Source: Patescibacteria group bacterium (GTDB lineage Bacteria; Patescibacteriota; Minisyncoccia; Phycocordibacterales; PALSA-1337). Taken from it: a DNA stretch of 64,000 bases. A program made the translations under genes and the position numbers. Shown here one piece after another: positions 1 through 48,902 of the stretch (positions within the stretch are counted from its first letter, which is position 1; every line of letters starts with the position of its first letter). The stretch spans positions 66,276 through 130,275 of the forward strand of contig JAGXAG010000002.1 in assembly GCA_018971685.1 (NCBI GenBank), given 5' to 3'. The notes under the pieces are model-generated. The model searched no databases and was not told the DNA's origin. It saw only the letters and a program-made list of their open reading frames with translations.

Positions 1-90
1 CCGCCCCGGCGAAGTGTTTCCATCTTATCGCTTCGCTCGATGCGGGGAACACTTGTCGCCGGCTCGACGGTCGCCGCCCTGGCGACGTCT
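1..90. repeat. GC-rich palindromic repeat-family copy A, lying inside the topA reading frame
   Basis: Hairpins CCGGCGAAGTGTT / AACACTTGTCGCCGG and GTCGCC-GCCCT-GGCGAC. The core TCGCTTCGCTCG...AACACTT...CTCGACGGTCGCCGC recurs at 48843-48900 and 38070-38090. Confidence 0.5.
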
Positions 91-389
91 TTCTTTGTGA
101 GCAATTCCTTTAAATGCCAGGCAATGGCTTCACCTTCGCGGTCCGGGTCGGTGGCAAGTAATACTTCGTCGGCCTTGACGGCCTCTTTGCGGATCTCGTC
201 GATGACGGTTTGCTTCTTGGGCACGATCTCGTAACGGGGAATAAAGCCACCTTCGATGTCGACGGCTTTCTTGTTTGACTTGGGTAAGTCGCGCACATGT
301 CCGATAGAGGCGCGCACGACGAAATCGTGTCCGAGGTATTTCGAAATTGTTTTCGCCTTCGACGGCGATTCGACGACCAAAAGTTTCAT
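1..389 (-). CDS. topA: DNA topoisomerase I, N-terminal TOPRIM part (partial; the gene continues past the window start). The frame was found by hand and is not in the ORF track.
   Basis: Minus-strand translation from ATG (complement of 387-389) gives MKLLVVESPSKAKTISKYLGHDFVVRASIGHVRDLP...ATDPDREGEAIAWHLKELL, which carries the canonical TopA TOPRIM motifs. The last ~30 codons (nt 1-90) are GC-rich repeat sequence and do not align to TopA. Confidence 0.75.
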   Translation of the reverse strand, partial: MKLLVVESPSKAKTISKYLGHDFVVRASIGHVRDLPKSNKKAVDIEGGFIPRYEIVPKKQTVIDEIRKEAVKADEVLLATDPDREGEAIAWHLKELLTKKDVARAATVEPATSVPRIERSDKMETLRRG

Positions 390-4835: not shown

Positions 4836-6449
4836 CTACTTCTCCACCGTCCTTACCGCTTCTATCCTGTCTCCGACCGCAATTTCGACTTTTGCCTCAA
4901 CCATCACCCCGAATTCGTGTCCTTCGGCCACCTCGCTCGTTCTCAGTTTCTTTTCCTGGAGCTCGCGAATTTTGCCCCTGCCGATTTCCGCATCGCGGCG
5001 CATTATCCTGACCTCGTTGCCTGTCGAAATGATACCCGTTTCCACTTTGCCGCCCACGACTTGCCGGTCTTTCTCCTTGGAAAATATCGCCAGAATTTTG
5101 GCGCGGCCCGTCGATTCCTCAATGTATTCTTTCGGCACGCGCGCCAGTAGGGCGTTGCGCACGAATTCCGACAATTCGTATATGATCGAGAAATTTTTCA
5201 CTTGAATGGGGGAGCGCTCGATTATAGCCGCCGCTTTCTTGTCCGGTTCCGCGTTGAAGCCGACGATGACAATGTTTTCCGGATCGCCCAGCGCCGTCTT
5301 CGCGTCTTTTTCATTGATACCGCCGATACCCTCCGAAACAATTTTTATTTTCACTTTGTCATGCTCGATTTTGCCAAGCTCGAATTTCACGCCGTCCAAG
5401 CTACCGACAGTATCGGCTTTAAGGATTATAGGAAAATATATTATTTTGGGCGTTTCCGCCGCCTCGTCATCAGTAAAGGAATCCGAGGGACGCCTCGGAG
5501 GCCGCGAAGGCGGCCGAGAGCCAGCCGCGCCTAGAGCAGTCGGCGACGGCGTGTCCATCGGATCCTTTGCAGATGACGAGGCGGCGCTCCCCGTCAATCT
5601 CTCCGCATCCTTCTTGGATCCTACAGTTACGAATATATCACCGCAGGCCGGCACTTCATTCCAGCCTGTAATAACTACTGGCGTTGAAGCCGTCGCTTTC
5701 TCTATTTTATCACCCTTGAAATCCTCAATGAACCTGACCGGCGAATAAGCTGTGCCGGTCACCACGAATTTGCCGACTTCGAGCACGCCATCTTTCACTA
5801 TGAGCGTGGCGGAAATGCCTTTGCGCGGATCAAGCTCCGATTCGACAACCACACCCTCGGACGGTTTGTTCGGGTCGGCTTTCAGATCGGCCAATTCTGC
5901 AACCAGTATGACCATATCGAGAAGCTCTGAGACACCGGTTCCATTCAAGGCCGAAATGGCAACGCATGGTATATCGCCGCCCCAACCTTCGACATAGATC
6001 TCATTTTCGCCCAGGCTCTGCTTGGCGCGATTTATATCGGCATTCGGCTTATCAATTTTGTTTATTGCGACCACGAATGGAATGCCGGCCGATTTTATCT
6101 CCTTGTATGCTTCTATCGTCTGCGGCTTAACCCCGTCTTCCGCTGATACCACCAATATGGCGATATCGGCCGCTTTGGCGCCGCGTTCGCGGATACCGCA
6201 AAAGGCTTCGTGTCCGGGCGTGTCCAGAAATGTGACGGTATGCTTTTTTTCAGTGCCGGTATTATTGTCTTTGGAAATATGTTCAACCTGGTATGCTCCG
6301 ACATGCTGAGTGATGCCGCCCGCTTCGCCGGCCACAATGTTCGACTTCCTGATGTGGTCGAGCAGGGTTGACTTGCCATGGTCGATGTGACCCATGACGA
6401 CGACTATAGGAGGCCGCTTAACGCGGCCCTTTTCGTGATTATTGGACAT
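4836..6449 (-). CDS. infB: Translation initiation factor IF-2 (short form without the N-terminal domain)
   Basis: G1 GHIDHGKST, G3 DTPGHEAF, G4 NKIDK, a beta-barrel domain II and the C-terminal domains. A Pro/Ser/Arg-rich low-complexity linker (aa ~290-340) is encoded by a GC-rich repeat-like segment. Confidence 0.9.
   Translation of the reverse strand: MSNNHEKGRVKRPPIVVVMGHIDHGKSTLLDHIRKSNIVAGEAGGITQHVGAYQVEHISKDNNTGTEKKHTVTFLDTPGHEAFCGIRERGAKAADIAILVVSAEDGVKPQTIEAYKEIKSAGIPFVVAINKIDKPNADINRAKQSLGENEIYVEGWGGDIPCVAISALNGTGVSELLDMVILVAELADLKADPNKPSEGVVVESELDPRKGISATLIVKDGVLEVGKFVVTGTAYSPVRFIEDFKGDKIEKATASTPVVITGWNEVPACGDIFVTVGSKKDAERLTGSAASSSAKDPMDTPSPTALGAAGSRPPSRPPRRPSDSFTDDEAAETPKIIYFPIILKADTVGSLDGVKFELGKIEHDKVKIKIVSEGIGGINEKDAKTALGDPENIVIVGFNAEPDKKAAAIIERSPIQVKNFSIIYELSEFVRNALLARVPKEYIEESTGRAKILAIFSKEKDRQVVGGKVETGIISTGNEVRIMRRDAEIGRGKIRELQEKKLRTSEVAEGHEFGVMVEAKVEIAVGDRIEAVRTVEK
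5485..5570. repeat. GC-rich palindromic repeat-family segment inside the infB linker
   Basis: Nested hairpin CTCGG-AGG-[CCGC-GAAG-GCGG]-CCGAG. It shares CTCGGAGGCCG with the pyrD copy and GTCGGCGACGG with copy A. Confidence 0.45.
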
Positions 6450-34593: not shown

Positions 34594-35532
34594 TTATACA
34601 AGACTCTTCTCCTTCCTGAAAATCAATAGCCGAAATACGGTTATGGGTTTGCTTCCATGCATATCGATGCTCTTTGTTAACTTAAAACCGGCCTTATTCG
34701 CTGCTTCGACGATATCTCCTAAGGGTCGAAAAATGTCATAGATAGTCCCTTCCTCGTAAACAGTTTTCGGCGTTTCCATACTCAGCGATTTGTGTGGCCG
34801 CTCCGAATTGTAGAAGTCGAAGTAGGCGGCGAGATTCAATCTTGCATCCTCAATATTTTCATACGACTTGATGTACACGTCCTCATACTTCACTGATCTC
34901 CACAACCTTTCCGTAAAGATGTTGTCCATGCACCGGCCTCTGCCGTCCATGGATATCTTCACGCCGTTTCCAGCGAGCAATCCGGTGAAATCATCGCCGG
35001 TGAATTGGCTGCCCTGGTCCGTGTTGGAGATTTCCGGCGCACCATACGTTTCAATCGCCGTTCTCATTGCCCCGACGCAGAAGTCAGATTCCATGGTATG
35101 CGACAGCGCCCAGCCGACGACATATCTGCTCCACCAGTCGAGGATGGCATACAGGTAACAGAAGCCATGAGCCAGTCGAATGTAGGTGATGTCACTGCCC
35201 CAGATGTGGTTCGGGTGCTCGGGACCGATATGCCGCAGAAGGTACGGGTAGAGTTTGTGGTTTGGGTTTTTAACGCTTGTTTTCTTCGTTTTTGGGTAGA
35301 TCGCCTCCAAACCCATGAGGCTCATCAGCCGGCGCACATGGTCGCGGCCAATCGTAACGTCGTATTTCTTTCCAAGATCATGCCGGATGCGGCGGGAGCC
35401 GTAGAAGGGGCGCTTGGTAAAGATTTCGTCGATTGCCTTCATAATTGCGATGTCGGCTTCGTTCACCCTTGGCTCGTAGTAGAAGCTGGCCCTGGAGATT
35501 CCGAGAAGCCCTGTCTGCCTGGTGATGCTCAT
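34594..35532 (-). CDS. IS3-family transposase OrfB (integrase core, DDE)
   Basis: HIWGSDITYI ... DQGSQFT ... ERLWRSVKYE, the rve-domain catalytic triad context. Confidence 0.85.
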   Translation of the reverse strand: MSITRQTGLLGISRASFYYEPRVNEADIAIMKAIDEIFTKRPFYGSRRIRHDLGKKYDVTIGRDHVRRLMSLMGLEAIYPKTKKTSVKNPNHKLYPYLLRHIGPEHPNHIWGSDITYIRLAHGFCYLYAILDWWSRYVVGWALSHTMESDFCVGAMRTAIETYGAPEISNTDQGSQFTGDDFTGLLAGNGVKISMDGRGRCMDNIFTERLWRSVKYEDVYIKSYENIEDARLNLAAYFDFYNSERPHKSLSMETPKTVYEEGTIYDIFRPLGDIVEAANKAGFKLTKSIDMHGSKPITVFRLLIFRKEKSLV

Positions 35533-35569
35533 ATTTGATTGTGAAGGAACGACTAAATTCAGACGCGTC

Positions 35570-35854
35570 TCATGTTCCCAGTCTCTGCATATTTTTTTTC
35601 ATCCATTCCAGCTCCGTGTCGCGTTGGCCGATTACCTTGTAAAGCTCCTCGATGAGCTTGTCCCTGTCCTCGAATTCCTTCTTCATCTTGCCACTGAAGA
35701 GCGAGGACGCACCTTCGAGGAGTCGACGCTTCCAGAATCCGATCTGGGTCGTGTGCACCCCGTAGGTGCCGGCGATTTCTGTGGGCGACTTCATGCCCTT
35801 TAAGGCCTCAAGTGCGACCTTGGCTTTGTAATCTGGTGAGAATTGTTTTTTCAT
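35570..35854 (-). CDS. IS3-family transposase OrfA (HTH)
   Basis: MKKQFSPDYKAKVALEALKGMKSPTEIAGTYGVHTTQIGFWKRRL plus a leucine-zipper-like C-terminus. Confidence 0.8.
   Translation of the reverse strand: MKKQFSPDYKAKVALEALKGMKSPTEIAGTYGVHTTQIGFWKRRLLEGASSLFSGKMKKEFEDRDKLIEELYKVIGQRDTELEWMKKNMQRLGT
35592..35599 (-). promoter_or_regulatory. Programmed -1 ribosomal frameshift slippery site (A8 on the coding strand) that would fuse OrfA to OrfB
   Basis: A T8 run on the plus strand, 7 codons before the orfA stop, with orfB open in the -1 frame. Confidence 0.5.
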
Positions 35855-37401: not shown

Positions 37402-38532
37402 TCATAACATATTGATGTCAGACTTCTGTAAAATATTTTTTATCAATCCAGGACCGCCAAAAATCATCCCCGTAATGAGCTGCAGCAAATCCGCTCCGGC
37501 CTTGAATTTTGCCGCGGCATCTTCTGGCGACATAACGCCGCCGGCTCCTATAATAGTGAACCGCTTGCCGTAAGTTTGCCGCGTCTTCCGGATCAATTCG
37601 TCGGACAACTTGGCGCACGGCTTGCCGGAAAGGCCGCCTTGATATTCCGGCGGCGCTTCCCCGCCGACATCGAGCGAGCCGTAATCTTTATTCAGGTTGC
37701 CGATAACGACGCCGTTGAGCCCGTACATGTCGATGATATCGAGCAAGGCCTTGAATTGGTCCCAGGCCAAATTTATCGGCATTTTGACATAGACGGGTTT
37801 GTTGCAAGGTATTTGCTTCAGTCGAGCCAACAATTTATCGAGTAGTTCCGGCGTGGCGAACGCCTCGCCACCAAAGGCGTTCGGGCACGAAATGTTGATG
37901 GTGTAATAGTCGCCGACATTTTCCTCGTTTAGTCGCCTGAATGAATAGGCGTAATCTTCGACGCCGGTTTCAACTGTCGCGGATTTTTCGTCGTTCGTGC
38001 GCGCTATCGATATTCCCACTACAAACCCAGCCTCCCCCTTCCCGCCGCAACGAAATGTCTCGCATCCGGCTTCGCTTCGTTCGACACCTGTCGCCCGCTC
38101 GGAGGCCGAGGCGGCTGTCGCATGGACTGCTTTTAAACGCTCGATTATCACATCAACGCCATCGTTCTTAAGACCTTTATTGACAACGATGCTGCGTGAC
38201 TTGGGCAACCTCTGTAGGCGCGGCTTGGGATTGCCGGCACACGGCCGCGCAGTCACCGATCCAACTTCTTCGCCGCCAAATCCGACGCATGGCAATATTC
38301 CGCACAAACGCGCATTGTAATCAAAACCGGCGGCCAGCAATACGGGTGTACGATATTTTATCCCGTCCACGGTTTTACCGATGTCTCGGCCGTTATATCC
38401 GTAAATCATATTGGTTGCGGCGCGCGTGATCTCGTGATCACCCAAAAATTCCCCGAAATTGATGAATCGGTCGTGGACAAATTCAGGGTCAAAACGGAAA
38501 AGTATCGGCTTCAACAATTTTCGGTACAACAT
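37402..38532 (-). CDS. pyrD: Dihydroorotate dehydrogenase (quinone), class 2, with a ~30-aa in-frame insertion
   Basis: An N-terminal membrane-association helix, GFGGEEVGSVTARPCAGNPKPRLQRL, NISCPN, and GGLSGKP...IIGAGGV. The segment ATAASASERATGVERSEAGCETFRCGGKGEAG sits between conserved blocks LKAVH and FVVGISIARTND. Confidence 0.85.
   Translation of the reverse strand: MLYRKLLKPILFRFDPEFVHDRFINFGEFLGDHEITRAATNMIYGYNGRDIGKTVDGIKYRTPVLLAAGFDYNARLCGILPCVGFGGEEVGSVTARPCAGNPKPRLQRLPKSRSIVVNKGLKNDGVDVIIERLKAVHATAASASERATGVERSEAGCETFRCGGKGEAGFVVGISIARTNDEKSATVETGVEDYAYSFRRLNEENVGDYYTINISCPNAFGGEAFATPELLDKLLARLKQIPCNKPVYVKMPINLAWDQFKALLDIIDMYGLNGVVIGNLNKDYGSLDVGGEAPPEYQGGLSGKPCAKLSDELIRKTRQTYGKRFTIIGAGGVMSPEDAAAKFKAGADLLQLITGMIFGGPGLIKNILQKSDINML
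38040..38130. repeat. GC-rich palindromic repeat-family copy inserted in frame in pyrD
   Basis: CCGGCTTCGCTTCGTTCGACACCTGTCGCCCGCTCGGAGGCCGAGGCGG shares TCGCTTCG(CTCG)TTCGACAC with the groES-groEL spacer copy and has a CTCGG-AGG-CCGAG hairpin. Confidence 0.5.
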
Positions 38533-48807: not shown

Positions 48808-48811
48808 TTAC

Positions 48812-48902
48812 ATCCGCGGCTCCCTCCTCGGCGCGACTAAGTGTCTCACATTCGCTTCGCTCGTTCGACACTTCTTGCCGCCTCGACGGTCGCCGCTGGA
48901 GT
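48812..48902. repeat. GC-rich repeat-family copy filling the groES-groEL spacer
   Basis: TTCGCTTCGCTCGTTCGACACTTCTTGCCGCCTCGACGGTCGCCGCTGG is ~85% identical over ~55 nt to window 28-84 (inside topA) and shares the TCGCTTCG..TTCGACAC core with the pyrD copy. Confidence 0.55.

Follow-up and report, generated by a model that had tools for sequence, protein, structure and literature searches.

The closest known counterparts of the element described here are the Rickettsia palindromic elements (RPEs), which are summarised as repeats of 100-150 bp belonging to ten families and found in-frame within numerous genes that are unrelated to one another, at sites compatible with the fold of the host protein (PMC10969869, PMC1779305, citing Ogata et al. 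2000, 2002). Classical MITEs are also described as being occasionally intragenic and as giving rise to in-frame fusions (PMC10969869). In-frame "protein-coding palindromes" have so far been regarded as essentially a peculiarity of Rickettsia, and we now report them from Patescibacteria (CPR).

Two further groups of palindromic repeats are relevant to the comparison. The REP/BIME elements with RAYT and the IS200/IS605-derived PATEs depend for their mobility or recognition on an imperfect hairpin in one DNA strand and lack both TIR and TSD. The mitochondrial GC clusters and the translational-bypass elements ("byps") of yeasts are GC-rich palindromic mobile clusters found in coding genes of an AT-richer genome; byps break the frame of their host gene, and the ribosome passes over them.

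The insert in PyrD and its structural setting

The main features discussed are located in one stretch of 64,000 nucleotides, called the window throughout, and their coordinates are collected in Table 1. The protein encoded by the host gene matches KGQ27_01450, an NCBI entry from a Patescibacteria MAG that is annotated as "hypothetical protein", with 100% identity. It was placed among the class-2 dihydroorotate dehydrogenases (DHODH), in which a helical N-terminal domain accompanies the PF01180 TIM barrel, on account of its PF01180 match and of its similarity to solved structures: the PDB chain 7ut5 was matched with an E value of 8e-40, and the predicted model gave TM scores of 0.78-0.89 against DHODH structures (Foldseek), with 0.87 on E. 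coli 1f76. The same protein is present on seven contigs. Moreover, the window DNA around pyrD is 100% identical over 4-7 kb to assembly GCA_028865255.1 and to the independent Logan assembly SRR32006840, and the insert is therefore no assembly artefact. No empty pyrD allele is known, the independent assemblies being identical, while the nearest other PyrD of the database reaches only ~72% identity.

Table 1. Position, strand and supporting evidence of the features of the window discussed in the text
Feature	Position in the window	Strand	Evidence
Class-2 (quinone-type) dihydroorotate dehydrogenase PyrD, 376 aa	37402..38532	minus	ORF and PF01180
In-frame insert ATAASASERATGVERSEAGCETFRCGGKGEAG in PyrD, residues 138-169; decayed family-A copy in sense orientation	38026..38121	minus	nhmmer, alignment gap, GC, pLDDT
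Small hairpin CTCGG-AGG-CCGAG	38098..38110	unassigned	sequence and family alignment
Central stem-loop of the element, plus strand AAATGTC...GACACCT	38053..38089	minus	sequence and family alignment
Family-A copy in-frame in topA, Toprim domain (Pfam E 1e-23)	1..95	minus	profile search; the ORF starts at 389 and leaves the window
Family-A copy filling the groES-groEL spacer	about 48810..48902	minus	profile search and folding

The insert is flanked by RLKAVH and FVVGISIA. The original prediction, made from the sequence without database searches, had claimed an in-frame insertion of ~30 amino acids at a site where E. coli PyrD is contiguous, and this agrees both with the open reading of the gene and with the BLASTP alignment to the E. 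coli protein, in which one clean gap of 30 residues falls exactly at the insert (KKAHYDG/VLGINIG). The 7ut5 and 1f76 chains likewise align to the protein in two blocks and skip the insert. The loop found at this site in E. coli PyrD and in most relatives has 5-7 residues. In the alignment with other PyrD sequences that had been proposed as a check, 7 residues is the commonest length from RLK to F (39 of the 120 closest homologues), against 35 residues in this PyrD. The alignment gives a net gain of ~28 residues, or 84 nt, the number of extra residues being put at about 28-32. The interval first proposed for the insertion, 38040-38130, covers the feature, with boundaries that are off by about 10-14 nt from those given in Table 1.

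The GC content is 0.68 in the insert, 0.51 in the rest of the gene and 0.476 in the window, as expected from the description of a GC-rich insert within an otherwise AT-moderate gene. The core of a repeat family, which had also been read at this site, was recovered with nhmmer by a profile built from three copies (E = 1e-24) and by a 19-copy cross-genome profile (E = 7e-18). The core patterns of the family, hereafter family A, gave 0 matches in shuffled controls, and the DNA of the insert thus belongs to a dispersed repeat.

The small hairpin to which attention had originally been drawn is present at the insert and is a minor feature, the main hairpin being the one that spans the whole element. 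At its position the family consensus reads CTCGA-CGG-TCGAG on the plus strand, and in the pyrD copy the closing pair is altered on both sides. The central stem of this copy is kept on the minus (mRNA) strand through G-U wobble pairs. The pyrD copy is the most decayed one: whereas the groESL copy has an MFE z score of -3.99, that of the pyrD copy is -0.03, no better than after shuffling.

An AlphaFold (AF2) model of PyrD, built on the 120-sequence alignment, has a mean pLDDT of 92.5 and a pTM of 0.91 and is of high confidence except at the insert, with pLDDT values of ~58-61 over residues 151-170. The native helix (residues 126-148) extends in the model into the first part of the insert, which is followed by coil and then by a strand (170-176). 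Mapping onto the structure, as had been suggested, therefore puts the insert in a helix-to-strand loop, where it is predicted to form a disordered surface segment; this position, the low pLDDT and the clean gap relative to E. coli are those of a permissive surface site. In the TIM-barrel topology the alpha-to-beta loops are on the face opposite the catalytic C-terminal ends of the strands. As the insert is modelled in such a loop, general barrel topology would place it on the face opposite the FMN and the active site.

A dispersed family of palindromic repeats

A repeat search tied the pyrD site to positions 49-77 and 48868-48896 of the window. Three family-A copies are present in these 64 kb, in pyrD, in topA and in the groES-groEL spacer, and all three have one orientation; the minus strand of the window was taken to define the "sense" strand of the family. 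The element is GC-rich and measures about 85-105 nt. In topA it follows immediately on the part that encodes the topoisomerase I Toprim domain and is read in-frame (..KDVARAATVEPATSVPRIERSDKMETLRRG..), using the same frame of the element as in pyrD. The groES-groEL copy begins directly past the groES stop codon and is the best-preserved hairpin of the window, with an MFE of -44.1. The GAGGAGGGAG block of this last copy is found ~25 nt upstream of the groEL ATG, which is too distant for an ordinary Shine-Dalgarno site.

An exact-pattern scan with ACACTTNNNGCNNNCTCGACGGTCG, covering one genome per species, returned 25 loci. Four Patescibacteria MAGs, which bear the label Ca. Saccharibacteria, account for 18 of them, and the full-length element is present in all 18. 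In the other seven, which belong to other phyla, the profile search found no full-length element; these seven therefore arose by chance and act as an internal control. One of the genomes, GCA_964355985.1, has exact-pattern copies on at least 11 contigs. The three copies in 64 kb, together with those in other genomes, establish family A as a dispersed repeat.

In other genomes eight of the copies fall within long ORFs, which continue across them with no stop codon. Six of the eight hosts are named by Pfam, namely FtsK (ftsK), PNPase (pnp), UvrB (uvrB), CTP synthase (pyrG), IF-2 (infB) and SecA (secA), and the seventh is the PyrD of locus L001; in-frame, stop-free insertions thus occur in these unrelated conserved genes, in PyrD of two genomes and in TopA. 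About four of the in-gene copies are in sense and six in antisense orientation relative to the host gene. The family consensus has one stop-free sense frame, giving LAASTVEAATSVER..ETLRR.EEGE-type peptides, and our reading of the consensus is that pyrD, topA and infB all use this open frame. On the antisense side two or three frames are open, with peptides of the form ..SPSSARRSVSH..STLVA.STVE.. All other copies lie between genes, where they occupy short spacers, often touching stop codons within operons, as in L10-L7/L12, the S10 operon and groESL, and after leuS and gatC. No split or interrupted gene was found among the copies examined.

The 18 aligned copies form one long hairpin of 24 pairs, 9 of which have compensatory double changes. 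The fraction of cells in a standard pair is 97.4%, against 88.3% in shuffles, and 37 cells are changed on both sides, against 10.1 in shuffles; in both cases the observed value was reached by 0 of 500 shuffles. As a control the 3' partner was slid by 1-3 columns, and 34-57% of cells were then paired. This hairpin is that of the family consensus, the pyrD copy itself being decayed. The interior blocks GACCGTCGAG, GGCGACAAGTGT / ACACTTCGTCGCC and GAGGAGGGAG are near-invariant, and the outermost stem varies between copies with its complementarity retained. On the sense strand there are 12 G-U pairs and 2 A-C mismatches among copies that are not independent, for which reason we give this excess little weight; it hints, weakly, at folding by one of the two strands in particular.

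No Rfam family covers the element, either in the window at the gathering threshold or, at E <= 1, in four loci whose copies are well preserved. In one of the Patescibacteria loci, Rfam strongly matched the RNA motif DUF3800-V on the minus strand (L014 6823-6918; 76.9 bits, E 3e-16). The window also contains a 42-nt AT-rich inverted repeat between tRNA-Lys and tRNA-Leu (533-574 / 601-642, 86% complementary, with a 26-nt spacer), and this repeat, at 533-642, is unrelated to the GC-rich family A.

Long PyrD loops in related genomes

Counted after query residue 134, the loop lengths of the PyrD homologues vary continuously, the shortest being 5 and the longest 74 residues. In this alignment the loop is extended by at least 5 residues in 41 of the 120 best homologues, and in about a dozen of them by 24-65; long internal inserts elsewhere in PyrD are rare, with two cases among the 120. 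Loops of intermediate length (11-23 residues) may be former insertions that have decayed or have been partly deleted.

The DNA of six long-loop homologues (L001-L006) was fetched. All six carry GC-enriched palindromes, which contradicts the outcome that had been named as fatal to the original prediction, i.e. that in related PyrD proteins the loop would be native and equally long, and its DNA free of any repeat signature. In L001 the loop holds a family-A element in the opposite orientation (E = 5e-21) together with a second palindrome, family B. The loops of L002-L006 hold other long near-perfect palindromes, with folding energies of -55 to -97 kcal/mol, that are GC-enriched relative to their own genes. 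The palindrome family of the L003 insert recurs in another genome (L004:2-71), and the inserts of L004 and L005 have a common core of 39 nt in opposite orientations. Since different families in different orientations occupy this one site of PyrD, a single ancestral insertion is ruled out. We favour a structural filter, by which only insertions in this loop of PyrD survive, the remaining alternative being a local target preference at the loop.

Family B, with the peptide AAPAGENSPPRGACDETEELLSPRGRG, was observed three times in two genes of GCA_964355985.1 (at L001 7205-7303, and at two sites of uvrB in L030). The pyrD and uvrB composites of one genome consist of family A, a small hairpin and family B, and are near-identical over ~204-205 nt, with sharp ends and unrelated flanks. 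That this A+B composite is seen twice suggests that composite units can spread.

A different palindrome, of 130 nt, is located in-frame in the IF-2 gene of the window, at 5457-5586 (infB 4836..6449, minus strand), with a folding energy of -74 kcal/mol and a GC content of 0.66, against 0.52 for the gene. It occupies the same inter-domain linker of IF-2 as the family-A element in the IF-2 of locus L024. No second copy of it was found in the window or in the fetched loci. The other strong GC-rich hairpins in long ORFs of the window were discarded as ordinary coding sequence.

Origin, movement and comparison with described elements

We consider it probable that the insert in PyrD is a non-autonomous selfish palindromic repeat which is tolerated by the enzyme and translated as a disordered surface loop. 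The palindromic repeat would spread within and between related Patescibacteria genomes, and the pyrD copy has landed in the one stop-free sense frame of the element. Its inserted length is a multiple of three bases, by virtue of which pyrD stays open, and about 28-32 hydrophilic residues would be translated. The insert would then persist because the site is permissive and the extra peptide can loop out as a disordered segment of the surface. Whichever way they are oriented, the in-gene copies lack stops and keep the frame, and no gene was seen to be interrupted, from which we infer that the insert is translated, and neither removed nor bypassed. Judging from the sequence, the mature PyrD enzyme probably contains it, and its effect is presumably neutral or nearly so. 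The label "mobile element" is used provisionally, solely on the basis of the dispersed copies.

As to the movement, our guess is a hairpin-dependent and strand-specific route through single-stranded DNA, with the enzyme supplied in trans. An interior that is conserved, ends that vary but remain paired, the absence of both TIR and TSD, and the asymmetry of the wobble pairs would, as a conjecture, speak for hairpin-dependent single-strand mobilisation over a cut-and-paste DDE MITE. No clear target-site duplication was found at the sharp boundaries of the pyrD/uvrB composites (one comparison, in one genome), and no classical or conserved terminal repeats were found among the copies. A tblastn search for a Y1/HUH transposase, which used IS200/IS608 TnpA queries and covered a small fraction of each genome, gave nothing convincing.

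An IS3-family IS is present in the window at 34594-35854 (minus strand), between infA and gap and ~1.5 kb from pyrD, and encodes an OrfA of 94 aa and an OrfB of 312 aa (HTH_21/rve/rve_3). This is the only IS of the window and was rejected as a partner of the element, to which it has no similarity and no matching ends, and with which it gave no profile match. The gene between two copies in L020 was similarly set aside, being that of an ordinary HTH protein.

A more far-reaching possibility is that the element is no passive DNA parasite but a structured nucleic acid with one functional strand, for example a hairpin replicon of a new type mobilised as RNA or ssDNA, with a conserved core GACCGTCGAG ... 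GAGGAGGGAG and freely covarying stems, and with a preference for transcribed DNA and for particular permissive loops. We think this improbable. If it were true, repeats would systematically drive the evolution of loops in the housekeeping proteins of Patescibacteria.

An RNA-level function would explain the covarying stems and the excess of G-U pairs just as well. The element might then be primarily a structured RNA (cis-regulatory, a small RNA, or an RNA-mobilised unit resembling a retroelement), its copies in genes being by-products or being processed or bypassed. Such an RNA would account for the strong covariation, for the high conservation of the unpaired blocks GACCGTCGAG and GAGGAGGGAG, for the 12 to 2 ratio of G-U over A-C on one strand, and for the transcribed context, either a gene or a short operon spacer, of all copies examined. 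However, the in-gene copies occur in both orientations, about six antisense and four sense, and one RNA strand is therefore not the common product of host transcription. Moreover, all of them are stop-free with the frame kept, which would be needless if they were removed or bypassed, there is no Rfam match even at E <= 1, and the covariation could also come from arm-to-arm correction in a DNA hairpin. A primary role as RNA thus seems to us very unlikely.

We are equally sceptical of co-option, by which the loop would give PyrD a new property, such as interaction with a partner or the membrane, or regulation, and would be kept by selection on the protein. The inserts of the relatives, in which this loop has been repeatedly expanded, are unrelated in sequence and orientation and conserve no common peptide, and the same peptide family is found in functionally unrelated enzymes. 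The insert in PyrD is fixed, being identical in independent assemblies, and its palindrome has decayed while the reading frame was kept, both of which would suit a co-opted loop, whereas the predicted disorder of the segment would not. A native lineage-specific extension of the PyrD loop, in line with the continuous range of 5 to 74 residues among relatives, or an assembly artefact is hardly credible, since the repeat that the DNA matches (E about 1e-18 to 1e-24) is dispersed and also occurs in spacers and in genes unrelated to pyrD, and since the DNA is identical in the NCBI MAG and in the independent Logan assembly.

Regarded as a tolerated selfish palindrome, the element can be set beside the described systems. 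An intein or a group I/II intron was rejected, because 96 nt, or 32 aa, is far too small and no Rfam ribozyme or intron was matched. Translational bypass was discarded as well: unlike in byps, all in-gene copies of family A are stop-free, open and in-frame, and no genes are split. With the MITEs (Correia, ERIC, RUP, Nezha) family A has in common that it is small and dispersed, non-autonomous and non-coding, and forms a hairpin. In contrast to a classical MITE its ends are the most variable part and its interior the most conserved, and this class was rejected in view of the variable outer stem, the lack of TSD at the pyrD/uvrB boundaries and the unrelated IS of the window. The weak strand asymmetry of the wobble pairs in family A would fit a mobility or recognition of the REP/BIME or PATE type; REPs are extragenic and shorter than family A.

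In the literature searched we found no published description of such elements in Patescibacteria/CPR, an absence that is no proof of novelty. These insertions explain odd GC-rich segments and "hypothetical protein" calls in CPR orthologues, of which PyrD is an example, and they matter for marker-gene alignments and phylogenies of the CPR, as IF-2, SecA and PNPase are among the hosts. They also show, as a map drawn by nature, at which loops conserved enzymes tolerate insertions.

Like the RPEs, family A consists of short dispersed palindromes that are found in intergenic and coding DNA, are in-frame in housekeeping genes and give a family-specific peptide. The Patescibacteria elements also resemble RPEs in occupying fold-compatible sites and in the presence of several families in one small reduced genome. 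The differences are that RPEs have Rickettsiales as hosts and measure 100-150 bp, whereas family A is found in Patescibacteria, measures about 85-105 nt, is GC-rich relative to its host and is inserted in both orientations. By analogy, the element would work like an RPE, and we do not file it in any of the sequence families RPE-1 to RPE-10 because the host phylum differs and the likeness is one of behaviour. The several families, the ten housekeeping genes and the repeated loop insertions suggest that selfish repeats give rise to such insertions more generally in genomes that are small and gene-dense. No new principle is involved; what is new here is the occurrence of RPE-like palindromes in Patescibacteria and, set against the RPEs, their recurrent and independent insertion in the same loop of orthologous enzymes from different genomes.
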